Source: Armatimonadota bacterium (lineage in GTDB: Bacteria > Armatimonadota > SYMT01). From it: a DNA stretch of 64,000 nucleotides. Below, one piece after another: positions 5,048 through 24,447 of this stretch. Within the stretch, counting starts at the first letter, position 1; each line of letters starts with the position of its first letter. The position numbers were made by a program, and so were the translations under genes. Location: the NCBI GenBank assembly GCA_046292385.1, contig JBKBRF010000008.1, positions 1 through 64,000 of the forward strand, written 5' to 3'. Under the pieces are notes generated by a model. The model made no database searches and was not told the origin of the DNA. It saw only the letters and a program-made list of their open reading frames with translations.

Positions 5048-6733
5048 GTGTCAGATAACACCCGTTACATCGTCATTTCCGGCGGCGTGGTCTCCGGCCT
5101 CGGCAAAGGCATCACCGCCGCCTCTCTCGGCCTGCTCCTGAAGGCCCGCGGCTTTACCGTCTCCCCCATCAAGTGCGACATGTACGTCAACCTCGATGCG
5201 GGCACCATGAACCCCACGATCCACGGTGAGGTGTTCGTGACCGACGACGGTCTGGAAGCCGACCAGGACCTCGGTCACTACGAGCGCTACCTGAATCAGG
5301 ACATGAGCCGGAAGAACTACGTTACTACCGGCCAGATCTACTACTCGATCATCCAGAAGGAGCGCTCCCTCTGCTACGAGGGCAAGTGCGTGGAAGTGGT
5401 CCCCCACGTGCCGGAGGAGATCATCCAGCGCATCGTGGAAGCCGGTGAGAACGCGGAGTTCGTGCTGATCGAGCTGGGCGGCACCGTGGGCGAGTACCAG
5501 AGCGAGGTGTTCCTGGAAGCGACCCGCATGCTCTCCAAGCGGATGCCGGGTCGCACGGCGCACATCCACGTCTCCTACTTCCCCTACCTGGACAGCCTCG
5601 GCGAGCTGAAGTCGAAGCCGACGCAGCTCTCTATCCGCAAGCTGAACGAGTGCGGCATCCTGCCCGACTTCGTCGTGGCGCGCTCCGCCCGGACGGTCGA
5701 CGCTCCCCGCTTCACCACGCTCTGCCAGAACTCCAACCTGGAGCCGGAGCAGATCATCTTCTCGCCGGACATGCGCTCCGTCTACGAAGTGCCGCGGAAG
5801 CTGGAGGAGCAGGAGTTCGCCCAGAAGCTGCTGCGCCGCCTCGGGGTGGAGGTGATGCCGCGGCCGCGGCTGCAGGAGTGGGAGACACGGGTCGACCGCC
5901 TGGTGAACGGCACCGGGCCGGAGATCCGCGTCGGCATCGTGGCGAAGTACCACGCCGTCGGCGACTACTCCCTCTCGGACGCGTACGTCAGCGTCGTCGA
6001 GGCGCTCCACCACGTGGAGGCGGCGACCGGCGCGCGGATCAAGATTGACTGGGTCGACGCGGAAGAGCTGGAGAACGGCGACGTGGCCGCTCGCCTGAAG
6101 CAGTGCGACGGGCTGATCATTCCCCAGGGTTGGGGCTCGCGCGGGGCCGAGGGCAAGATCGCCGCGATCAAGTATGCGCGGGAGAACGGCGTCCCCTACT
6201 TCGGGCTCTGCTACGGGATGCAGATGGCGGTGGTGGAGTTCGGCCGGCACATCCTGAAGCTGCGCGACGCGAACAGCGAAGAGGTGAACGCCGGGACACC
6301 GCATCCGGTGGTCCACGTGATGCCGGAGCAGGCGGAAGTGATCCGACAGAAGCGCTACGGCGGCAGCATCCGGGTCGGCGCGTACCCGTGCCGCACCGCC
6401 GAGGGAAGCTGGCTGCGGCGCCTCTATGGCAGCGAGACGATCAGCGAGCGCCATCGTCACCGGTACGAGTTCAACAACGAGTACCGCGAGCGCTACGAGA
6501 AGGCGGGAATGCTCTTCGCCGGCCTCTCTCCGGACGGATCACTCGTGGAAGCGATCGAGCTGCCGAACCACCCGTTCTTCGTGGGAGTCCAGTACCATCC
6601 GGAGTACAAGAGCCGGGTGGAGGTGCCGCACCCGCTCTTCATGGGCTTCGTGGACGCCTGCCTGGAGCGTCGCGACGGCGCTGCCAAGCCCGCCGCCCAG
6701 GATGAGGCGCGGGAAGCGGTAGCGACGGGGTAA
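5048..6733 (+). CDS. pyrG: CTP synthase
   Basis: GGVVSGLGKGITAAS, HGEVFVTDDG, GLCYGMQ catalytic Cys, ERHRHRYE, QYHPE; GTG start. Confidence 0.97.
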   Translation: MSDNTRYIVISGGVVSGLGKGITAASLGLLLKARGFTVSPIKCDMYVNLDAGTMNPTIHGEVFVTDDGLEADQDLGHYERYLNQDMSRKNYVTTGQIYYSIIQKERSLCYEGKCVEVVPHVPEEIIQRIVEAGENAEFVLIELGGTVGEYQSEVFLEATRMLSKRMPGRTAHIHVSYFPYLDSLGELKSKPTQLSIRKLNECGILPDFVVARSARTVDAPRFTTLCQNSNLEPEQIIFSPDMRSVYEVPRKLEEQEFAQKLLRRLGVEVMPRPRLQEWETRVDRLVNGTGPEIRVGIVAKYHAVGDYSLSDAYVSVVEALHHVEAATGARIKIDWVDAEELENGDVAARLKQCDGLIIPQGWGSRGAEGKIAAIKYARENGVPYFGLCYGMQMAVVEFGRHILKLRDANSEEVNAGTPHPVVHVMPEQAEVIRQKRYGGSIRVGAYPCRTAEGSWLRRLYGSETISERHRHRYEFNNEYRERYEKAGMLFAGLSPDGSLVEAIELPNHPFFVGVQYHPEYKSRVEVPHPLFMGFVDACLERRDGAAKPAAQDEAREAVATG

Positions 6734-14659: not shown

Positions 14660-17089
14660 TTACCGGGGCCGGGTGGATGCCTGGACGGTCAGCTTTGCGT
14701 TCTGGAGCGACGCGGAGCTGGGACCCGCCGAGACGGTAAAGGTGCCCGGCTCCACCACTCGCTTCATCTGCAGGTTCCAGAAGGCGAGATCGTCCGGCGT
14801 GAGCTGGAACGTCACCGTCTTCCGCTCGCCCGGCTGCAGCGTGACCCGCTGGAACCGCTTCAGCTCCAGCACCGGCCGCGTGACCGACGCCTCGTCGTCG
14901 CGCACGTAGAGCTGCACCACCTCGTCGCCCGCGCGGGTGCCGGTGTTCGCCACGTCGACGCTCACCTGCGCCGGCTCGCCCATCCGGACCGTAGGCCGGG
15001 CCAGCCGCGGTGCGGAGATACTGAAGGTGGTATAGCTGAGGCCGTAGCCGAACGGATAGAGCGGCCTGGTGCTCTCGAACAGGTAGCCGCGGCGCGCGGT
15101 CGGCTTGTGGTTGTAGTAGATCGGGAGCTGCCCCACGGAGCGTGCGATCGAGACGGGAAGCTTGCCGCCGGGGCTCGCCTGCCCGAAGAGCACGTCCGCC
15201 ACCGCGTTCCCGGTCTCCTGGCCCAGGTACCAGCCCTCCAGCAGAGCGGGCGCCTTCTCCGCCAGGTAGTTGACGGAGAGCGGCCGGCCGTTCAGCAAGA
15301 CGACAACGGTCGGCTTTCCCAGCGCGAAGATCTCGCGGGCGAGGTCGTTCTGCTGCCCGATCAGGTCTAGCGACGCCCGGTCGCCCAGGTGCGTATCCGC
15401 CCAGGCTTCCCGGCTGGTCTGCTCGTTGTCGCCGAGAACCATCACCACCACGTCGGCCTTTCGGGCGGTCTCCACCGCCTCCCGGATGAGCCGCGCGTTG
15501 ATCGCCGGGTCGACCAGCTTCACGGGGTCCGCCGTCCAGGAGCGGCTCTCCGTGATCCGCACGCCCTCGGAGTAGTCGACCTCGAACCGGCCGCCGGCCG
15601 CCTTCTGGATGCCTTCCAGCACGCTGACCACGTGCCGGGGCACGTCGCTGTACCCGCCAATCGGCGTGTCACGGGCGTGAGTGCCGAGCACGGCCAGCCG
15701 CCGGATGCGCGCGGCGTCGAGCGGAAGCAGGCCGCCCTCGTTCTTCAGGAGCACGATCGACCGTCGTGCCGCCTCTCGCGCCAGCGCCACCGCGTCCGGG
15801 GTGGCGGTTCTCGCTTCGGCGGCGCCGGCGTCGACATACGGGTTCTCGAAGAGCCCGGCCTGGAACTTCAGCTCCAGGATGCGCCGCACCGCGGTGTCGA
15901 GCAGCTTCACCGACACGCGGCCGGACTTCACCAGCTCCGGCAGCAGCAGATAGCCTTCCGCGTCCGGCATCTCCGCATCGACCCCCGCCTCCAGCGCCCG
16001 CGCGGCGGCGGTGCGGAGCTCGGTCGACATCCGGTGCCGCGTGTTCAGCTCGCGGATGCCGTAGTAGTCGCTCAGCACCGCCCCCTGGAAGCCCCACGCC
16101 CCGCGCAGCACGTCGTTCAACAGCCAGCGGTTCGCGTGCGACGGAACGCCGTCGATTTCGTTGTAGGAGGCCATCACCGCGCGGACCGGAAGCTCCTTCA
16201 CGGCCCGTTCGAACGGCGGGAAGAAGTTGGTCCGCAGGTTCCGCTCCGAGATGTCCGCCGGGCCCACGTTCGTGCCGTTCTCCGGCTGGCCGTGGCCCGT
16301 CATGTGCTTCAGCGTCACGAGCACCTTGTCCGGCGCCAGGGGAAGCTTTCGCCCCTGGAAGCCGCGGATCGCCGCCAGCCCCATTTCGCTGACGAGGTGC
16401 GGGTCCTCGCCGTACGTCTCCTCGATGCGGCCCCACCGGGGATCTCGCGCTACGTCGACGACCGGCGCGAGGGCCAGCTGCGCTCCGCGGGCGCGCATCT
16501 CCCGGGCCGCCACGGCGAAGACCCGCTCCACCAGCTCCGGGTCCCAGCTGCTGGCCAGGGCGATCGACTGCGGAAAGCTGGTCGCGCCTCGCGCCACGTA
16601 GCCGTGCAGCGCTTCCTCGTGCAGCAGCAGCGGAATCCCCAGGCGGGTCTTCTCCACCGCCCAGCGCTGGGCCGCGTTGACGTAGGCAGCGGTTTCCTGC
16701 GCGCTGCGGTTGACCGCTCCGTCGGCCGCGCCGGCCACCTCGCCGCCCCGCCGTCTCGGCGCGCTCACGCCGCGTGTGTCCGAGGGGCGGGCGATCTGTC
16801 CCAGCCCGTGCGGAAACGCCTGCGACGCCTTCTCGGGAGAGAAGGTCCCGTCCGGAGTCTGGATCCGGTCCTTCTGCCCCCAGACACAGACCAGCTGCGC
16901 CGCCTTCTCCTCCAGCGTCATCCGCGAGAGGAGGTCGTTCACCCGGCGCTCCAGCGGCTGCTTTGCGTCCTTATAGAGCGGAGCGGAGCCGCGTGCTCCT
17001 GCCGCCAGCGCTGCGGCGGTGATCGACAGCGTGACGGCGAGAAGGCCCAGGGTGCGAAGGACGGAGCGGGGGTGAAAGTGCGCGCGCAT
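14660..17089 (-). CDS. exported glycoside hydrolase family 3 (beta-glucosidase/xylosidase, BglX-like)
   Basis: Signal peptide; EEALHG, RDPRWGRIEETYGEDP, TLKH, VMASYN, LSDY nucleophile; C-terminal Fn3-like GDEVVQLY. Confidence 0.93.
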   Translation of the reverse strand: MRAHFHPRSVLRTLGLLAVTLSITAAALAAGARGSAPLYKDAKQPLERRVNDLLSRMTLEEKAAQLVCVWGQKDRIQTPDGTFSPEKASQAFPHGLGQIARPSDTRGVSAPRRRGGEVAGAADGAVNRSAQETAAYVNAAQRWAVEKTRLGIPLLLHEEALHGYVARGATSFPQSIALASSWDPELVERVFAVAAREMRARGAQLALAPVVDVARDPRWGRIEETYGEDPHLVSEMGLAAIRGFQGRKLPLAPDKVLVTLKHMTGHGQPENGTNVGPADISERNLRTNFFPPFERAVKELPVRAVMASYNEIDGVPSHANRWLLNDVLRGAWGFQGAVLSDYYGIRELNTRHRMSTELRTAAARALEAGVDAEMPDAEGYLLLPELVKSGRVSVKLLDTAVRRILELKFQAGLFENPYVDAGAAEARTATPDAVALAREAARRSIVLLKNEGGLLPLDAARIRRLAVLGTHARDTPIGGYSDVPRHVVSVLEGIQKAAGGRFEVDYSEGVRITESRSWTADPVKLVDPAINARLIREAVETARKADVVVMVLGDNEQTSREAWADTHLGDRASLDLIGQQNDLAREIFALGKPTVVVLLNGRPLSVNYLAEKAPALLEGWYLGQETGNAVADVLFGQASPGGKLPVSIARSVGQLPIYYNHKPTARRGYLFESTRPLYPFGYGLSYTTFSISAPRLARPTVRMGEPAQVSVDVANTGTRAGDEVVQLYVRDDEASVTRPVLELKRFQRVTLQPGERKTVTFQLTPDDLAFWNLQMKRVVEPGTFTVSAGPSSASLQNAKLTVQASTRPR

Positions 17090-18582: not shown

Positions 18583-19869
18583 CTAGCTAGTACGCAGCCG
18601 CTCCAGCCTCTGCCAGTAGTCCGGGAAGGTCTTGGCGGTGCAGCCGGGGTCGGCGATCTGCACCCCCTCCGCGCGGAGGCCGACCAGCGCGAACGCCATC
18701 GCCATGCGGTGGTCGTGGTAGGTCTGCACTACGGCGGGGGTGACCGGCCGCGGGGTGATGCGGAGGCCGTCCGGCAGCTCCTCCACCTCCTGCCCCAGGC
18801 GGCGCAGCTCCGCGGCGGAGGCGGAGACGCGGTCGCACTCCTGCAGGCGGCTGTGGGCGACGTTCCGCACCTCCGTCACCCCCTCCGCGAACGGCGCGAT
18901 GGCGTAGAGCGTCTGCGCCATGTCGGAGAAGGCGTTGGCGTCTACGGAGACGGCGCGGAGGCGCTCCGGCCCCTGGACCTCCACGAAGTCGGCGCCGCGG
19001 GTCACGGTGCAGCCCATCTCCTCCAGCACGCGCAAGAGCTCCAGGTCGCCCTGCGCGCTCCCCCGCCCGAGGCCCGGCACGCGGACCCGGCCGCCGGAGA
19101 TCGCCGCGGCGGCGAAGAAGTAGGAGGCGTTGGAGGCGTCCGGCTCCACCTGGTAGTCGCGCGGCCAGTACTGCTGCCCGCCCGGCACCCGGAGGATGCG
19201 ATACTCCGGGTCCCGCTCCATCGTCGCGCCGAACGCGGCCATCACGTCGGCGGTGAGGTCGATGTACGGCTTGGAGACCATCTCCCGCTCCACGTGGAGC
19301 GTCAGCCCGTTCCGGGTGAGCGGACCGACCATCAGCAGCGCGCTGAAGTACTGGCTGCTGCTGTCACCGGGGAGGCTCACCTCCCCACCCGCCATGCCGT
19401 CCGCCTCGATCCGGACCGGCGGGCAGCCGGTGCCCTCTTCGGAGTAGGCCCGCACGCCGAGGCTTTGCAGCGCGTCCAGGAGCGGCTGGATCGGCCGCTG
19501 GCGCATGCGGGGAACGCCGTCGACCCGGTACCGTCCGTGCCCCACCCCCAGGAACGCCACCAGGAACCGTGTCGCGGTGCCGGCGTTGCCGACGAACAGC
19601 TCCGCCTCTTCCGCCGGGATGCGCCCGCCCTGTCCCCACACCTCGTACCGGGCGTCGGCCGCGTCCTCTTCCACGCGCAGTTTCAGCCGCCGGAGCGAGT
19701 CGGCCATCCGCTCCGTGTCCTCGGAGAAGAGCGCGCCGCGCAAGACCGAGTGACCCTCCGCCATCGCGGCGATCAGGAGCGCGCGGTTGGTGTAGCTCTT
19801 GGAGCCGGGGACCTGCACCACCGCGTCAACGGGGCCGGAAAGGGGGCGGATCGGGAGAGGATCTTGCAT
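18583..19869 (-). CDS. aroA: 3-phosphoshikimate 1-carboxyvinyltransferase (EPSP synthase)
   Basis: PGSKSYTNR, GNAGTATRF, SSSQYFS, RLQECDR, DHRMAM, KTFP. Confidence 0.97.
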   Translation of the reverse strand: MQDPLPIRPLSGPVDAVVQVPGSKSYTNRALLIAAMAEGHSVLRGALFSEDTERMADSLRRLKLRVEEDAADARYEVWGQGGRIPAEEAELFVGNAGTATRFLVAFLGVGHGRYRVDGVPRMRQRPIQPLLDALQSLGVRAYSEEGTGCPPVRIEADGMAGGEVSLPGDSSSQYFSALLMVGPLTRNGLTLHVEREMVSKPYIDLTADVMAAFGATMERDPEYRILRVPGGQQYWPRDYQVEPDASNASYFFAAAAISGGRVRVPGLGRGSAQGDLELLRVLEEMGCTVTRGADFVEVQGPERLRAVSVDANAFSDMAQTLYAIAPFAEGVTEVRNVAHSRLQECDRVSASAAELRRLGQEVEELPDGLRITPRPVTPAVVQTYHDHRMAMAFALVGLRAEGVQIADPGCTAKTFPDYWQRLERLRTS

Positions 19870-20092
19870 GCGCCCATTCTAGGGTCCGCCTGCGGAGGGG
19901 TCAACTGCGGAGCGGAGACTGGAGCTCCCGGCTGCAGCGAGTCCGCGCCGGCGCGAAAATGGCTGGAACGGGCCCACTCCGGGCGGGTTCATTAGGACAC
20001 GACCACGCCGGGAGCCGAGAAGGAGCCGGTTGGTTGGCTTTCCCTGAACCAATCCCCGGGCCGAGCCCGGACTCAAGTAGAGGAGCTCCCTC

Positions 20093-20533
20093 GTGAAGAC
20101 CTTCATTCTGCGCGGCCTGTTGGCGACCGCTCTCATCGGCGCCGCCGCCCTTCCCGCCGCCGCTCACGATAGCCATTCCCGCGGCAGCAGCCCGAGCCAC
20201 CGCTCGCATCCGGACCGCGGACCGGGCTACCGCGCTCCGGACCACAGCCGGCATCCGGGCCAGAGCGGCCATCCGGGCCGGGGCAACGCCTACGGCCGGT
20301 ACGACCATCGCGACAGCTTCGAGCATCGCTGTGTCCGCGGCGAGAGCCGCGAGCAGCACCTCCGGGGCCTCCGCATGCAGCGCGAGCGGCAGCAGCAGCG
20401 GTCTCGCTACGGCAACTCGCACCGGGACGGCTACCGCGGCCGGTACGACGATCGCCGCGACGACTACCGCGGCCGGGACCATGACCGCGACGATCAGTAC
20501 CGCGGCTCGCGCGGGTCTTCCCACCGCCGCTAA
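20093..20533 (+). CDS. exported low-complexity His/Arg/Asp/Gly-rich protein
   Basis: AGGAG RBS, GTG start, signal peptide ending AAA-H; mature part is RDDYRGR-like repeats. Confidence 0.7.
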   Translation: MKTFILRGLLATALIGAAALPAAAHDSHSRGSSPSHRSHPDRGPGYRAPDHSRHPGQSGHPGRGNAYGRYDHRDSFEHRCVRGESREQHLRGLRMQRERQQQRSRYGNSHRDGYRGRYDDRRDDYRGRDHDRDDQYRGSRGSSHRR

Positions 20534-20553
20534 GCGATGGGGATCGGCCGGAT

Positions 20554-20590
20554 GAAGAGGGGCTGGAGCATTTCGCTTCAGCCCCTCTTC
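20554..20590. terminator. hairpin between convergent genes (possible bidirectional terminator)
   Basis: GAAGAGGGGCTG...CAGCCCCTCTTC 12-bp stem. Confidence 0.55.
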
Positions 20591-20601
20591 GCTTGTCGAG
20601 A

Positions 20602-21492
20602 CTAGAAGAACGTCTCGAACGCCACCCGGAGCTCGTAGGGGAAGTCCGAGTGGGCCGCCTCGCCGGTGCGGGCCAGCGGAACCATCACCCCGACCCGGAA
20701 CTGGTGGCTGCCCCGGATCACCATCTGTGTCAGGTGCAGACCCAACAGTCCGTGCCGGTTGTCGGCGTCCCGTCCTCCGCCGAGCGGATCGTCGGAGTGC
20801 CACTCGGCGTGGATCCCGAGGGCCGTGTTGAGCCCCAGGTCGGCGGCTTCCCGCTGCGGACGGGTCCAGTAGCCGTACGCGGCGTCGAACGCGAGCATGT
20901 CCCCCATTCGGAAGCCGCCCCCCAGGTCGCGCGTCCAGACCAGGCTCGCCCAGGTGGTGTCATCCAGGCGCTCCAGGTCCCACGCGTAGCCGAGCAGGAG
21001 TCCCGGGTTACCGGTGCCGGTCTGCGAGTGCGGCTCCAGGCGGCCGCCTCCGGGATCGGGATGGGTGTCGTCGCCCGTGGGAAGCTTCACCCCGAAGAAG
21101 ACCGACTGCTGCATGTTGTAGCCGACCTCCTGTTTGGCCGAGATCCGGCTCTTGGCGCGGAGGGTAATGTCCCCCAGCCCGGAGACGAAGGTCGACCGCA
21201 GCCGGCCGCGCAGCCGGGTCTGGTGCAGGCTGTTGTGGTACGGCACCTCCAGCCGCAGGTTCAGGCGGGGGCTGATGCCGTAGTCGACCATGTACTCCTG
21301 CTCGAACATCCGCATCCGCTCGCCGCCGCGGCGGGTGGTGCCGGCATCGAAGTACATGAGCTTCACCTCCGGGTGGATCACTCCGAAGCCGAAGGTGATC
21401 GGCGTCTCGCCCCAGAGCGGCTCATGCGCCGCCGCCGGAGCGGTCCCCAGGAGCAGGCTGCTCAATCCGAGCACAGAGAGCAGGCGTCGCAT
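20602..21492 (-). CDS. putative outer-membrane beta-barrel transporter (Phenol_MetA_deg/COG4313-like), His-rich
   Basis: Signal peptide AAA-HEP; SGLGDITLRAK and GVKLPTG motifs; alternating strand with terminal Phe (YELRVAFETFF). Confidence 0.7.
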   Translation of the reverse strand: MRRLLSVLGLSSLLLGTAPAAAHEPLWGETPITFGFGVIHPEVKLMYFDAGTTRRGGERMRMFEQEYMVDYGISPRLNLRLEVPYHNSLHQTRLRGRLRSTFVSGLGDITLRAKSRISAKQEVGYNMQQSVFFGVKLPTGDDTHPDPGGGRLEPHSQTGTGNPGLLLGYAWDLERLDDTTWASLVWTRDLGGGFRMGDMLAFDAAYGYWTRPQREAADLGLNTALGIHAEWHSDDPLGGGRDADNRHGLLGLHLTQMVIRGSHQFRVGVMVPLARTGEAAHSDFPYELRVAFETFF

Positions 21493-21493
21493 C

Positions 21494-22036
21494 TCACCGC
21501 TCCTTCTTTCGCTCGCCGGGCGGCACCACCGCGGTGACTCCCAGGGTCCCGTGGCTGCCCTCTTCTTCTCCCGGCTTCCAGAGCCCCTCCAGCTCCACCC
21601 CCTGGCCGACCTGCTTCTCCAGTTGGGAGAGCAGCTCAGCGTGCCCCTCGGCGGCGGTGAGCGGCAGCTCCACGGGGTGGCGCATCTTGTCGAGGCGGAG
21701 CACCAGGCGATCCGCTTCGCGCGCCAGCGTTCCGGTTACCCGGAGCTCGGTCTGCTCGGGAATCGGGGTGTAGCCCGCGTCCCGGATCGTCTCCCACATG
21801 CGGCGCGGGTCGGGCCACTGGCCCGGCTTCACCTTCACCTCCATGACGGGAGGGCGCAGGTACAGCTTTGCTTGAGCAACGCCATCCAGGCGCTGCAGCC
21901 CCTTGCGGAGCGTAATGCCTCAAGTGGCTCACGTGGCGCCCTTGAGGCCCAGCTTCACCTGCTTCAGGTCGGCGAAGGCGGGGCCGGCGCAGAGCAGCGC
22001 GGCGAGCGCCGGTACGACGAATAGACGTCCGTTCAT
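21494..22036 (-). CDS. exported heavy-metal-associated (HMA, MerP/CopZ-like) domain protein with two in-frame UGA codons: putative UxxU selenoprotein (180 aa)
   Basis: GGGAGA RBS and ATG 22036; reads MNGRLFVVPALAALLCAGPAFA-DLKQVKLGLKGAT*AT*GITLRKGLQRLDGVAQAKLY...WETIRDAGYTP, in frame with the 21494-21844 ORF; the two TGA (21931-21929, 21922-21920) sit exactly at the Cys positions of the HMA GMTCxxC motif. Confidence 0.85.
21889..21919 (-). promoter_or_regulatory. candidate bacterial SECIS hairpin
   Basis: Directly 3' of the second UGA: GGCAUUAC-GCUCC-GCAA-GGGGC-UGCAGCGCC; apical loop begins with G, 22 nt after UGA1 and 13 nt after UGA2. Confidence 0.55.
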
Positions 22037-22128
22037 CAGAGTCTCCCAGTCGAGATGCATCGGAGCGCGCACCCTGCGGGTACGCGCGAGCGGGACGACA
22101 GGCGGGCCGAGGTACTCGGCCGTTCTCG

Positions 22129-22602
22129 TCAGCGACTGGGAGGAGCGCGGGGCCCCGCGGCGGTGCGGCCCGGCGGAGCCCGGCCCGGAGAGGAGGTCCG
22201 GAAGAAGAGGCGTCGTACACCCGTGGGAGCCGCGAGGCGCACTCCGCCGAAGGCGGGGAGCATGGGACCCGGGTCGAGACCGGGCGGCGTGTCCAGGTGG
22301 CGCGGTGACCCGGCCGGGTTGGCCTCCACCCGGAATCGGCAGTGGTCTGGGGTCTTCGCCTGCGGAGCCTGGTCTGCGGTGCTGCCCGCGGCGGGCAGCT
22401 CGCCGTGGTCGCAGGTGTCATGCACCGGGACCGCGCAGCAGCTTGGCTTTCCCGCCAGGCGCTCCAGGCAGGCGAAGGCCTCCGCGCCGACCCGGACGCA
22501 CGCGTCTCCGTTCGGGCAGGTCCACCCTGCCCGCGCGGGTTGCAGCGGCATCCCCAGCAGCGCGAGGACCGGCAGCAGCGCGATTCGGACTCGTCTCCGC
22601 AT
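22129..22602 (-). CDS. Cys-rich exported leader protein ending in RAPP (DUF2946/CruR/CutF-like arrest peptide)
   Basis: Signal peptide; Cys/His cluster (CPNGDAC, C, CC, HDTCDH, HC); Pro-rich linker; C-terminus GRAPPGRTAAGPRAPPSR*. Confidence 0.7.
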   Translation of the reverse strand: MRRRVRIALLPVLALLGMPLQPARAGWTCPNGDACVRVGAEAFACLERLAGKPSCCAVPVHDTCDHGELPAAGSTADQAPQAKTPDHCRFRVEANPAGSPRHLDTPPGLDPGPMLPAFGGVRLAAPTGVRRLFFRTSSPGRAPPGRTAAGPRAPPSR

Positions 22603-22778
22603 CACAAGAAGAGTATACGGCCCCGGGTCACCGCTCCGACGATCCGTGCGACTTCCGTCACAAAGACGGCGGCGAGTGCCCGGTACCGGCTTCCAGAGCC
22701 CCGGTGAGGGGTTTGAGGCGTGTCAGGATGGGAAGCTAGGGGCAGAGAGACAAACGCTGAACCCCGGGAGGTCGCTCG

Positions 22779-23447
22779 ATGCAGACTGTCTCACGCCTCG
22801 CCCTGATCTCGTCCCTGCTCCTGACCGCGCTGGCGGCGCACGCGGCCGCTCCTGCTCCGAGCGCCTCCGACGTGCTGGCACGCGTGGAGCGCCGGCTCGC
22901 CGCGGTGGAGGACTACAGCTACGTGCTGGAGTCGGAAGTCCGCGGGCCGAAGAAGCGGAGCCACGGCACCTACCAGATCTGGGTCCGCAAGCCGAATCTC
23001 TTCCGCCTCAAGGTGCAGCGCGGGCAGAACGAGGGCAGCGAGATCGCGGTCACGCCCCGCGGTACCGTCGATGCCCGGCCTGGCGGTCTGCTGAAGCACC
23101 TGGTGACGAAGTCGATGGACAAGCACGACCCCCGCCTCCGCTCGCCGCGCGGGGCGTACGCGTGGGAATCGACGTTCAGCCACTTCTGCTCCCGGCTCCG
23201 GCAGAGCCTCGGGCGCGCCGGGAGCGCTTCCACCGCGCCCGCTTCCGGCTCGAAGCAGCTCGCCGTCACCCTGAGCTACCGGCACCCGCAGAGCGGTCGC
23301 GCGATGCGCGAGACCTGGACGGTCGACAGCGGCGACTGGAAGCTCACTGGCTTCGATGTCTGGGAAGACGGCGTGCAGGTCGAAAAGTGCCGCCTCAAGG
23401 ACTGCCGCCTCAACCTCGGGCTGAAAGAGAAGTTCTTCGACCTGTAG
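22779..23447 (+). CDS. exported LolA/LppX-fold-like protein (outer-membrane lipoprotein-sorting family)
   Basis: GGGAGG RBS; signal peptide; DYSY, RKPNLFRL, and C-terminal N-x-GL-x-x-x-x-F typical of LolA-like folds. Confidence 0.6.
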   Translation: MQTVSRLALISSLLLTALAAHAAAPAPSASDVLARVERRLAAVEDYSYVLESEVRGPKKRSHGTYQIWVRKPNLFRLKVQRGQNEGSEIAVTPRGTVDARPGGLLKHLVTKSMDKHDPRLRSPRGAYAWESTFSHFCSRLRQSLGRAGSASTAPASGSKQLAVTLSYRHPQSGRAMRETWTVDSGDWKLTGFDVWEDGVQVEKCRLKDCRLNLGLKEKFFDL

Positions 23448-23664
23448 CCTGCCCCCTCGAGCGCGTCGGAGAGCCGCGGCCACCACCCCGCCTTTGGATC
23501 GAGGCAGTATTCCTCGCTCCGACACCCGGCCCAGAGCAGGATAGTCCCGGCGCCGGTCCGCGATTCCACCCATCAAATCCCCCGCCGGCGGGAACCATGG
23601 AAGTGAGGCGCGCACCGGGCACGGGAGCAGATTAGCGGTGCGCGCGGGCTCGAAGGAGGCTTCC

Positions 23665-24447
23665 GTGATCGAGATCAGGAGCCGGGAAACGCAGGCGGTG
23701 CTGCTGCGGGTGGAGGCGGATACCCTTCGCGGCGCCCAACTGGAGGGAGCCAACCTGCGCGACGCCTATCTCGTGGGCGCGGACCTGCGGGACGCCAACC
23801 TCCGGTGCGCCTGTCTCCGCTCCGCGCTGCTGCGCGGCGCCAATCTGCACGGCGCAGACCTGCGCGGCGCGGACCTGCGCGAAGCGCAGCTCGAGGGAGC
23901 GGTGCTGGACGGCGCGCACCTGGACGCCGGCCTGTTGGAAGGGGCGGACCTGGACCACGCCGGCCTCCACTCCGCCGTGCTCGCGCGCGCCGATCTCCGC
24001 GGAGCGATGCTGGAGGCGGCCGACCTCGAGGAGGCGGACCTCAGCGGCGCCGACCTGCGCGAGGCAGACCTGCGCGGAGCAGACCTGGCCGGCGCCAACC
24101 TGCGGGATGCCGACCTGCGCGGCGCGTTTCTGCGGGAAGCGGATCTGCGCACGGCGGTGCTGAGCGGCGCGGTCCTCCACTGCGCGGCGCTCGATGCGGC
24201 AGAGCTAGAGGGCGCCGTCCTCCGCGCCGCAGACCTGGACCACGCGCACCTGCGGGGCGCCGACCTGACCCACGCGGATCTCTCCCAGGCCGATCTCAGG
24301 TGTGCAGACCTCACGGGCGCGACACTCAGGGAGGCCGAGCTGGAAGGCGCGGACCTGCGCGGCGCCTCGCTGGAAGCGGCTGATCTCCGCGATGCGGACG
24401 TGGAGCCGGACCAGCTCAGCGCCGCGACGCCGGAGAATGGCCGCTGA
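23665..24447 (+). CDS. pentapeptide repeat protein
   Basis: Long run of A(D/N)LxG/ADLxx pentapeptides; AAGGAGG RBS before GTG. Confidence 0.92.
   Translation: MIEIRSRETQAVLLRVEADTLRGAQLEGANLRDAYLVGADLRDANLRCACLRSALLRGANLHGADLRGADLREAQLEGAVLDGAHLDAGLLEGADLDHAGLHSAVLARADLRGAMLEAADLEEADLSGADLREADLRGADLAGANLRDADLRGAFLREADLRTAVLSGAVLHCAALDAAELEGAVLRAADLDHAHLRGADLTHADLSQADLRCADLTGATLREAELEGADLRGASLEAADLRDADVEPDQLSAATPENGR

Follow-up and report, generated by a model that had tools for sequence, protein, structure and literature searches.

What does a small exported protein that ends in a ribosome-arrest motif do at the head of a metal locus whose next gene encodes a selenoprotein? The question is raised by three co-oriented genes, here called g1, g2 and g3, in the window, i.e. 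the whole 64,000-nucleotide stretch that we analysed (positions 1 to 64,000 of contig JBKBRF010000008.1, assembly GCA_046292385.1, Armatimonadota bacterium). The original prediction, made from the letters alone, had described them as a leader of the DUF2946 kind carrying the arrest motif RAPP, a selenoprotein with an HMA domain and an outer-membrane barrel, together forming a metal cassette controlled at translation. Judged from sequence, the locus is a real, conserved and translationally wired metal operon that combines the principle of the leaders CutF and CruR with an unrelated leader family and a selenoprotein cargo. Each individual part is of an already known kind. The genes are arranged as follows:

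22129-22605, minus strand: g1, exported Cys-rich leader (open reading frame (ORF) and translation), with the tail GRAPPGRTAAGPRAPPSR before the stop codon
21494-22036, minus strand: g2, exported HMA-domain selenoprotein of 180 amino acids with a UxxU metal loop (translation)
20602-21492, minus strand: g3, outer-membrane barrel of 296 amino acids, PF13557/COG4313 kind (ORF and translation)

Every particular from which the prediction had started was found in the sequence: three co-oriented exported proteins, two RAPP motifs and a Cys/His cluster in g1, the junction TGA-G-ATG, in which a single base separates the g2 stop from the g3 start, and a mature g3 with His as its first residue and a terminal Phe. 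The signal peptides of all three proteins were assigned by eye. g1 has 158 amino acids if translated from its GTG start and 157 from the ATG at 22602, the latter being the form in the public collection (P0004). Its N-terminus is basic and hydrophobic, the protein contains nine Cys and several His residues, and its tail reads SSPGRAPPGRTAAGPRAPPSR up to the stop codon. Two motifs in this tail are relevant for what follows:

22138-22149, minus strand: terminal RAPP codons CGC GCU CCU CCC, at which stalling is proposed, with two codons left before the TGA stop (RAPPSR, stop)
22171-22182, minus strand: upstream RAPP of g1, which aligns with the RPPP (GYRPPP) motif of the family

RAPP arrests ribosomes (PMC10951233; PMC12992588), with the two Pro codons of the motif in the P and A sites (PMC12992588). 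A single C-terminal motif of this kind carries no significance in the host, whose genome is rich in guanine and cytosine (GC): R[AG]PP occurs at 3.5e-4 per residue in the six-frame ORFs, and 211 C-terminal cases were observed among ORFs of at least 60 amino acids compared to approximately 150 expected. The tail of g1 exceeds chance because it is conserved across a family, not because it occurs once. A profile search of 5.8 billion proteins yielded 30 g1-type proteins, none of which has a Pfam domain, and our alignment comprises 31 sequences including two relatives read from loci. The C-terminal motif is RAPP in 30 of the 31 sequences and RGPP in the remaining one, and exactly two residues follow it in 27. 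W27, C29, G32, C35, C88, R152, P154 and P155 are invariant, and C45, C55, C56 and C64 nearly so. The family can be recognized by the motifs W-x-C-P-D-G-T-P-C-V, S-C-C, R-C-K-H-G, P-D-H-C-R-F and G-Y-R-P-P-P and by the tail G-P-S-R-A-P-P-x-x-stop. More distant members carry S-W-Q-C-x-D-G-x-P-C near the N-terminus and end with F-Y-P-Q-R-F-L-R-P-x-x-G-R-A-P-P-x-x-L-stop; two of these, the leaders L065 and L071, have a double RAPP as in the window and one has RGPP.

The distance between the Cys-containing part and the tail is nearly fixed. From the invariant Cys of DHCRF (C88) to the Arg of RAPP there are 63-65 residues in 30 of the 31 sequences and 61 in one, and the linker itself is poorly conserved. 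With such a fixed spacing, the last Cys motif would sit just outside the translocon as the ribosome reaches RAPP. The first 90 or so residues are well conserved in the manner of a folded domain. A PDB sequence search with g1 found nothing (best E 1.6), and the ESM Atlas model is of low confidence (pLDDT 0.48) with no named family near it. Members occur in 32 of 401 genomes and 25 of 207 genera of the phylum, and by these searches g1 represents an undescribed leader family.

The assignment of the leader to DUF2946 (PF11162) did not hold. g1 shares one trait of DUF2946 proteins, a C-terminal RAPP within a few residues of the stop. The PF11162 model matched neither g1 nor any of the 31 family members at E<=1 (Pfam cut-off 23.7 bits). 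A six-frame scan of the host genome at E<=10 gave matches at three other places and none at the g1 locus; a weak match at C2:165722-166084 of the same genome was considered and rejected as a RAPP leader. In 201 genomes of the phylum, PF11162 matched nine times and never at a g1 locus. Four of the five PF11162-matched ORFs that could be read through are classical leaders with CxxC and a RAPP or RGPP tail; the fifth needs read-through of an in-frame TAG. These DUF2946-type leaders, with CxxC plus RAPP or RGPP at the C-terminus, were seen in other Armatimonadota genomes (L073, L076, L077 and L079, and L075 with its in-frame TAG). As they too occur in the phylum, two unrelated RAPP-tailed leader families coexist in Armatimonadota. 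An hhalign comparison of the 31-sequence g1 alignment with the phylum's four DUF2946-type leaders aligned the tail alone (the last 15 columns), at a probability of 2.1%. g1 has no CXXC motif, whereas the DUF2946-type leaders of the same phylum do have one. By these profile comparisons g1 is not a DUF2946 member and has no detectable sequence relation to that family.

How could such a leader act on the gene behind it? The spacer between g1 and g2 measures 92 nt on the same strand, and spacers after other g1-type genes are long (50-305 nt) and C-rich. A 181-nt region including the g1-g2 spacer is strongly structured (z = -3.09; 1 of 200 shuffles folds as well), and in its predicted minimum-free-energy fold the following two arms pair as a 10-bp helix:

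22133-22142, minus strand: anti-Shine-Dalgarno arm CUCCCAGUCG, within the Pro-Pro-Ser-Arg codons of RAPPSR
22043-22052, minus strand: Shine-Dalgarno arm CGACUGGGAG of g2, six bases before the g2 AUG

The 5' arm extends in the window from the second base of the first RAPP Pro codon through the Arg codon before the stop. At other loci it always takes in the final sense codons and the stop and runs a few bases further, and equivalent pairings are formed there with other letters, among others GUAGCAUCC/GGAUGACUAC, UAGCAACC/GGUUGCUA and UCUCUCUCCUGAU/AUCAGGGAGAG. In two sets of loci the arms of each locus were compared with cross-pairs:

11 close loci: own-pair -18.0 vs cross-pair -14.3 kcal/mol, permutation p ~0.00025
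12 distant, lower-GC loci: own-pair -11.1 vs cross-pair -8.9 kcal/mol, permutation p ~0.008

Covariation of the stop-proximal leader codons with the Shine-Dalgarno sequence of the next gene is shown for these 23 loci at the level of predicted pairing. Because the codons after RAPP pair with the Shine-Dalgarno sequence of the next gene, g1 should work like CutF of Rhodobacter capsulatus, for which stalling has been reported to unmask cutO's ribosome-binding site (PMC9973294; bioRxiv 10.1101/2025.02.05.636593). We propose that a ribosome arrested at RAPP covers the anti-Shine-Dalgarno arm and thereby frees the Shine-Dalgarno sequence of g2, and that exactly two codons follow RAPP because the arm must lie under the arrested ribosome. 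Two points weigh against this proposal. Some of the next-gene starts in the distant set were picked by eye, and in a crude fold of the stalled state, with the ribosome footprint forced unpaired, the Shine-Dalgarno region still found other partners in most GC-rich loci. Because this constrained folding did not leave the Shine-Dalgarno sequence clearly free, unmasking is not shown by folding alone, and we do not count it as evidence. Overall, we consider g1 a probable arrest leader that unmasks the Shine-Dalgarno sequence of g2.

The same observations bear on a simpler explanation, according to which g1 is a plain secreted Cys-rich protein for metal binding or redox reactions, its Pro/Arg/Ala-rich tail is a by-product of high G+C content and the three genes are expressed constitutively together. 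The abundance of R[AG]PP in the genome and the conservation of the N-terminal 90 residues like a folded domain would be expected from it. It is at odds with the retention of RAPP in low-GC relatives, where the motif keeps its distance both from the stop and from the invariant Cys, with the covariation of the stop-proximal codons and with the poor Atlas model, and we regard it as very improbable.

The second gene is read as one protein across two in-frame UGA codons:

21929-21931, minus strand: first in-frame UGA (Sec36), TGA in 8 of 11 orthologues and Cys in 3 of 11
21920-21922, minus strand: second in-frame UGA (Sec39), TGA in 11 of 11 orthologues

After read-through with selenocysteine (Sec, U), the metal loop of the HMA domain reads KGAT-U-AT-U-GITLRKGLQRLDGV, a GxTCxxC-type motif with U for C, so that both TGAs fall on the two metal-ligand positions of the loop; the N-terminus of the protein is signal-like. 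The 11 orthologues were obtained from a six-frame search of 61 genomes together with metagenome loci. Eight of them read GATUATUG (UxxU) and three are of the CxxU form (CATU, CPTU, CHIU), and conservation extends to both sides of the TGAs at 25-53% identity. An exhaustive profile search of 1.84 billion representatives for relatives of g2 returned 9518 matches at E<=0.001 and 11 at E<=1e-30. Among the best homologues are full-length CxxC proteins with signal peptide, HMA domain and C-terminal domain (P0141, with GATCATCAF, P0142 and P0146-P0148), and members of the family other than that of the window are mostly CxxC. Many family fragments of 100-140 amino acids start just past the motif, as gene callers would produce them from Sec forms. 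One full-length homologue of 210 amino acids, P0143, reads GLT-R-AT-P-ATLSL with Arg and Pro at the ligand positions and may be a degenerate form or a miscalled sequence.

The host encodes the required machinery: SelB (367.5 bits), SelA (577.9 bits) and SelD (362.3 bits) all score over their NCBIfam cut-offs, selD has one in-frame TGA and hence encodes a selenoprotein itself, and a tRNA-SeC was called by ARAGORN. In this genome (G000) selD, selA and the tRNA-SeC apparently lie together at approximately 87434-90122 of contig C11, the contig of the tRNA call being assumed from its coordinates. A second, shorter tRNA-SeC call was made at 16947-17029 on a G000 contig.

Could the TGAs simply be stops, leaving a broken gene or two short ORFs? 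Gene callers do split g2, and the public collection holds just its 112-amino-acid C-terminal piece, which was the sole match in a word-indexed protein search. The modest evidence for a selenocysteine insertion sequence (SECIS) described below would also suit this explanation. The location of the TGAs exactly at the two HMA ligand positions speaks against it, as do the retention of both in 8 of 11 divergent orthologues with conserved flanks, the alternation with Cys in other orthologues and in full-length homologues, and the complete Sec machinery. We see hardly any room for it. A genetic code in which TGA is sense throughout the genome does not agree with g1 and g2, each of which has a TGA at the point where homologues stop, and was rejected; the stop codons of ten homologues compared with g1 are TAG (8), TAA (1) and TGA (1). 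On this evidence g2 is very probably a genuine selenoprotein of the UxxU HMA kind, as originally read. A dependence of g2 on selenium supply, in which a second level of regulation had been seen, would only be the generic dependence of any selenoprotein.

Two hairpins downstream of the UGAs are candidates for a SECIS element:

21898-21911, minus strand: hairpin A, a SECIS candidate that begins 11 nt downstream of the U in the second UGA
21878-21894, minus strand: hairpin B, also a SECIS candidate, at a distance of 34-38 nt (second UGA) and 43-47 nt (first UGA)

Across the orthologues hairpin B is paired in 97% of cells and has one compensatory pair (CG 6, AU 4, GC 1). Hairpin A is paired in 81.8% of cells and is shifted by one register in some orthologues. 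Several points count against both as insertion elements: no pair of hairpin A shows a compensatory change across the orthologues, the distances of hairpin B are at or beyond the range of bacterial SECIS elements, the overall local fold after the UGAs has a z-score of only -1.0, and a single element would have to serve both UGAs, which are spaced by nine bases. An Rfam scan of 19500-23500 found no SECIS or other family; its sole row was a sub-threshold small-RNA match at 20466-20592. As SECIS evidence the predicted hairpins are modest and at most suggestive.

The assignment of g2 to HMA proteins meets the difficulty that all available family models stay under their cut-offs: Pfam HMA (PF00403) with 20.2 bits (cut-off 24.8), the UxxU model NF041115 with 34 bits (cut-off 95; model positions 3-49 of 74) and MerP (TIGR02052) with 34.3 bits (cut-off 92.55). 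A profile of the orthologues, compared with solved HMA domains, matched the structure 1opz at E 3.7e-12 for a single domain and MerP (1afi) at 2.5e-8; the domains of Cu-ATPases match best, and CopZ is matched as well. The C-terminal domain of approximately 90 amino acids matched nothing in Pfam or the PDB, with a weak hint of DUF5818 in two relatives.

The mature form of the third protein begins, after the predicted signal peptide, with HEPLWGE; the 296 residues include 12 His and end with ETFF. A protein search returned 107 homologues, of which those with a name are from Armatimonadota. Ten carry a precomputed PF13557 match, and on rescanning 39 aligned homologues, 18 matched PF13557 (best E 5.2e-9). 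The orthologue from genome G007 scores 24.9 bits, over the cut-off of 22. The g3 of the window has no Pfam match at E<=1, and a PDB sequence search with it gave nothing (best E 0.07). The ESM Atlas model of exactly this protein (predicted TM-score 0.81) superimposes with TM 0.86 over residues 18-296 on a cluster in which 77% of the members carry PF13557, both sides of this comparison being predicted models. A barrel of the PF13557 kind, as first proposed, therefore fits g3 at the level of its family and predicted fold. HEPLWGE is nearly invariant in the family (H23 95%, E24 97%), and H40 is conserved at 95-97%. The solved COG4313 channel Pput2725 is described as a 12-stranded barrel whose first 14 or so residues lie in the lumen at the periplasmic side (PMC4493636). 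By analogy, the conserved N-terminal His/Glu segment of g3 probably lies within the barrel lumen, and one may reasonably guess that it serves as a plug accepting metal at the periplasmic mouth.

Do these genes belong together elsewhere? The cassette is single-copy in the host genome (7.0 Mb in 91 contigs, 98% complete), whose source is given as a soil or hot-spring bacterium. In 12 of 12 distinct loci the barrel and HMA genes are adjacent, and a g1-type leader heads seven of them. The synteny that had been predicted is in this sense present in relatives, but the gene order is not, as the barrel precedes the HMA gene in ten loci and follows it only in the window and in the close relative G005. 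Against a leader-controlled unit speak three of the 12 loci (L035, L036 and L037), in which barrel and HMA genes occur and no g1-type leader was found within several kb of upstream sequence; two further contigs are too short to judge. The coupling of the barrel to read-through of both UGAs had been proposed as a design of the operon. As a design it is not conserved, since most relatives have the two genes in the opposite order and g3 has a Shine-Dalgarno sequence of its own:

21500-21505, minus strand: AAGGAG within the 3' end of g2, seven bases before the g3 ATG (read from the sequence)

In the locus of the window itself such a coupling is possible.

A fuller form of the operon was found in L045 and L048, with the leader, a Cys-rich secreted protein, a TlpA-like redoxin, the barrel and the HMA protein; L047 has the same genes without a listed Cys-rich gene. 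The exported TlpA/Redoxin-like protein is split by an active-site TGA (DFWGPS-U-PS-C) at 4985-5539 in L045, ~3304-3864 in L047, ~4857-5459 in L048 and ~5025-5519 in L042, and would be a second selenoprotein of the fuller operon that is absent from the window; a CPPC version occurs in L065. Directly after the leaders of L041 (protein at 5519-5905), L042, L044, L045, L048, L051, L066 and L068 there are small secreted proteins packed with CC pairs (e.g. ACCATKTRCCDKVEFCCDQPDKAECC) that have no Pfam match. From their composition these are probably periplasmic metal sponges.

Which metal does the operon serve, and in which direction? That the cassette is metal-related is borne out by the HMA protein and by the neighbours in related loci. 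Other leaders of the g1 family precede an OEP gene (L064) and a CusB/HlyD gene (L062). In G007 a gene for a CsoR-type repressor lies directly upstream of the barrel and a CxxU-HMA protein. Further neighbours comprise YHS-Redoxin fusions, a YHS protein, a CopA-like P-type ATPase with YHS and HMA domains, RND pumps and a MerR regulator. The CsoR, CopA-like, CusB, OEP and YHS genes in related loci point to copper-like metals. CutF-like leaders, as characterized in PMC9973294, mostly head copper-type resistance genes. Two observations detract from this assignment: one related locus has ArsD/ArsA and a BlaI/BlaR pair among its neighbours, and the flanks of the cassette in the window hold no copper-type neighbour genes. 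By the weight of the neighbour evidence, resistance to copper-type metals (Cu(I)/Ag(I)) appears most likely, and on balance we lean towards a Cu-like metal and a protective role.

The metal could instead of copper be mercury or a different very soft one, e.g. Ag or Cd, with g2 as a MerP-like periplasmic scavenger whose selenolates bind Hg(II). The MerP model scores as high for g2 as the UxxU model (34.3 vs 34 bits), g2 shares the signal peptide with MerP, a gene of the MerR family lies beside one related locus, and reviews label the known family of UxxU HMA selenoproteins 'putative mercuric reductase' (PMC13188914, PMC9312934). Yet the MerP score is far under the cut-off of 92.55, among solved structures the HMA profile matches Cu-ATPase domains best, no merA, merT or merB was seen in any locus scanned, and the neighbours are instead CsoR, YHS, CopA-like ATPase, CusB and OEP genes. 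Mercury as the cognate metal is thus improbable, with somewhat more in its favour than the plain secreted g1 considered above.

Taken together, the preferred reading is that the operon serves the envelope in handling a thiophilic metal, Cu(I) being the likeliest, and is switched at translation by its own leader peptide, and we hold this to be reasonably likely. g1 would be exported during its synthesis, so that its Cys/His motifs are in the periplasm when the ribosome reaches the C-terminal RAPP 63-65 residues further on. The ribosome arrested there would occupy the next two codons and the stop, which constitute the anti-Shine-Dalgarno arm of the long-range helix, and the arrest would expose the next gene's ribosome-binding site, as happens with CutF and cutO. 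When the nascent leader captures metal, the arrest would last longer and the operon would be turned on. g2 would then act as a periplasmic HMA metallochaperone in which two selenocysteines (UxxU) replace the metal-binding cysteines, and g3 as an outer-membrane channel of the COG4313 type. Both would bind the metal and either pass it out of the periplasm or hold it there. We infer the actual stalling, the direction of the metal effect, the identity of the metal and the contact between g2 and g3; the direction follows from the cargo and from CsoR, and the contact from the strict adjacency of the two genes. It counts against the proposed direction that the logic is the reverse in CruR, the other RAPP leader that has been studied.

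If this opposite logic applied here, the stall would keep Rho off the transcript when metal is scarce and metal would release the stall and turn the operon off. A high-affinity acquisition route would in this case be formed by the HMA selenoprotein and the barrel. CruR, with RAPP three residues from its end, is reported to work in this way and to control an outer-membrane importer (PMC9426467), and COG4313 channels have been discussed as uptake channels (PMC4493636). The spacers behind g1-type genes, long and C-rich as described above (92 nt in the window, 50-305 nt at other loci), would be in line with it, and the very high affinity that selenolate ligands would give would suit scavenging. 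The element that is conserved, on the other hand, is a helix hiding a Shine-Dalgarno sequence, which fits control of translation initiation rather than Rho. Relatives of the leader head OEP- and CusB-type efflux genes, and the barrel-HMA pair of G007 stands behind a CsoR-type repressor. In known systems, CsoR releases its genes at high Cu(I). We consider CruR-type logic unlikely for g1, if less so than mercury as the metal.

A more specific version of the preferred reading, the translational switch for a thiophilic metal, can be offered tentatively, and we would sooner expect it to fail in some part than to hold as a whole. Here, the g1 family would comprise undescribed exported arrest-peptide metal sensors that are sequence-unrelated to DUF2946, use the two codons after RAPP and the stop as an anti-Shine-Dalgarno element and switch on a selenium-dependent envelope route for soft metals. 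In this route a diselenolate (UxxU) chaperone would deliver Cu(I), Ag(I) or Hg(II) to a channel of the COG4313 type with an N-terminal His/Glu plug as acceptor.

If these proposals are true, periplasmic metal sensing by a nascent chain, i.e. the CutF/CruR principle, arose in or spread to a sequence-unrelated leader family outside Proteobacteria. The design of the leader would be readable as a fixed ruler from Cys to RAPP plus an anti-Shine-Dalgarno element directly in the footprint of the stalled ribosome. Such leaders would have a new cargo, a two-selenocysteine metallochaperone and a COG4313 barrel, both from families of open function. g1 would be the first translational metal sensor that governs a selenoprotein, and the barrel would reveal the first metal role for COG4313 proteins. 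The locus would also provide compact parts for studying the control of the ribosome by ligands outside the membrane and what selenolates add to metal handling. Our literature search found no paper linking a RAPP leader to a selenoprotein and none combining selenocysteine with DUF2946.

In the window the cassette is flanked by aroA, a His-rich secreted protein, an unknown protein and a pentapeptide-repeat protein. The His-rich neighbour and two further features of the surroundings are:

20093-20533, plus strand: ORF of 146 amino acids, convergent with g3; N-terminus signal-like, body rich in His/Arg/Asp/Gly (HDSHSRGSSPSHRSHPDRG...RDHDRDDQYRG)
20466-20592, plus strand: gap between the His-rich ORF and g3 with a sub-threshold Rfam match to the alphaproteobacterial small RNA ar35 (25 bits; gathering score 45; E 0.079), probably by chance
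23638-24447, plus strand: pentapeptide-repeat protein on the opposite strand, approximately 1 kb upstream of g1

The ORF of 146 amino acids has no Pfam or NCBIfam match at E<=1 and no paralogue in the genome; from its composition it could be a secreted metal-binding protein or else a spurious GC-rich ORF. A pentapeptide-repeat protein also follows directly after an RGPP-tailed leader of the g1 family in G007 (L060), a likeness to the window that may be coincidence. A scan of 20000-23200 for promoters and terminators returned none of either and is uninformative for this phylum. In a divergent metagenome contig (run X2) position 22012 is joined to 22128, which omits 115 bases comprising the g1-g2 spacer and the start of g2; this contig probably stems from a relative with a different arrangement. 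Contigs of four DNA runs cover parts of the region, and none of the differences listed for them falls at 21920-21931; 88 further differences are unlisted, and we draw nothing from these contigs.

Among known systems, the closest in mechanism is CutF of R. capsulatus (cutFOG). Like CutF, g1 is a small protein exported by the general secretory route that has a metal motif built on Cys and, at the C-terminus, a proline-rich motif of the stalling kind, and its family likewise heads genes of metal homeostasis (OEP, CusB, CusA and similar). The RPPP approximately 12 residues before RAPP, which is also present in members of the g1 family, recalls the PPP of CutF. Measured against the definition of CutF-like proteins given in PMC9973294, g1 exceeds the limit of 150 amino acids with its 157 or 158 residues, and it does have PP within the last 15 residues, a signal peptide as judged by eye and a 92-nt gap on the same strand. 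It also shares the mechanism in the form of a predicted 10-bp helix masking the Shine-Dalgarno sequence, which recurs in 23 loci. The two differ in that there is no detectable sequence relation between them and that g1 has the motifs W-x-C-P-D-G-x-x-C, CC, C-x-H-G and D-H-C-R-F instead of the CutF motif. Moreover, the anti-Shine-Dalgarno element of g1 lies in the two codons after RAPP and in the stop codon itself, and its cargo is a selenoprotein with a COG4313 barrel, whereas that of CutF is a multicopper oxidase. The supplementary text of PMC9973294 covered here (8,054 characters) makes no mention of Armatimonad, HMA, PF00403 or PF13557.

CruR (Bp2923) of Bordetella pertussis, as described in PMC9426467, resembles g1 in several ways: the ORF lies upstream and encodes an exported protein, RAPP stands 2-3 residues before the C-terminal end, the spacing between a Cys motif and RAPP is conserved, and a long intergenic region precedes the gene of an outer-membrane protein. 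CruR responds to copper, and a copper-type metal is likewise proposed for g1. The distance from Cys to RAPP is 45 residues in CruR, where it was shown to matter (PMC9426467), compared to 63-65 in g1, which moreover lacks CXXC. CruR acts through Rho-dependent termination and copper relieves its stall, whereas the conserved element behind g1 is the helix masking the Shine-Dalgarno sequence. With the arrest peptides ApdA and ApdP (PMC10951233, PMC10987492, PMC12992588) g1 has in common the C-terminal RAPP or RGPP, the small size, the export or membrane location and the place in front of a regulated gene. Proteins with RAPP or RGPP have been noted upstream of metal-homeostasis genes and of thioredoxin and DsbA genes (PMC12992588). 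The genes preceded by such arrest peptides in these accounts are sec/yidC, TonB-receptor, YcnI, PCuAC, PepSY, DsbA and thioredoxin genes, and the portions drawn on here mention no selenoprotein or COG4313 cargo.

The cargo proteins compare with known families in a similar way. g2 appears to share the HMA fold with MerP/CopZ-type proteins and with NF041115 ('UxxU_metal_bind'), in which both metal-ligand cysteines are selenocysteine as in g2. Compared with NF041115, g2 belongs to a separate, longer and exported family that has a signal peptide and the extra C-terminal domain of approximately 90 amino acids. g3 resembles the COG4313/PF13557 channels such as Pput2725 in its length of approximately 300 amino acids, its C-terminal Phe and its conserved N-terminal segment, which is placed in the lumen by analogy. 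Known COG4313 members are tied to the uptake of hydrophobic compounds and not to metals in the account of PMC4493636. The subfamily of g3 is set apart by HEPLWGE at the N-terminus and by its strict pairing with an HMA protein.

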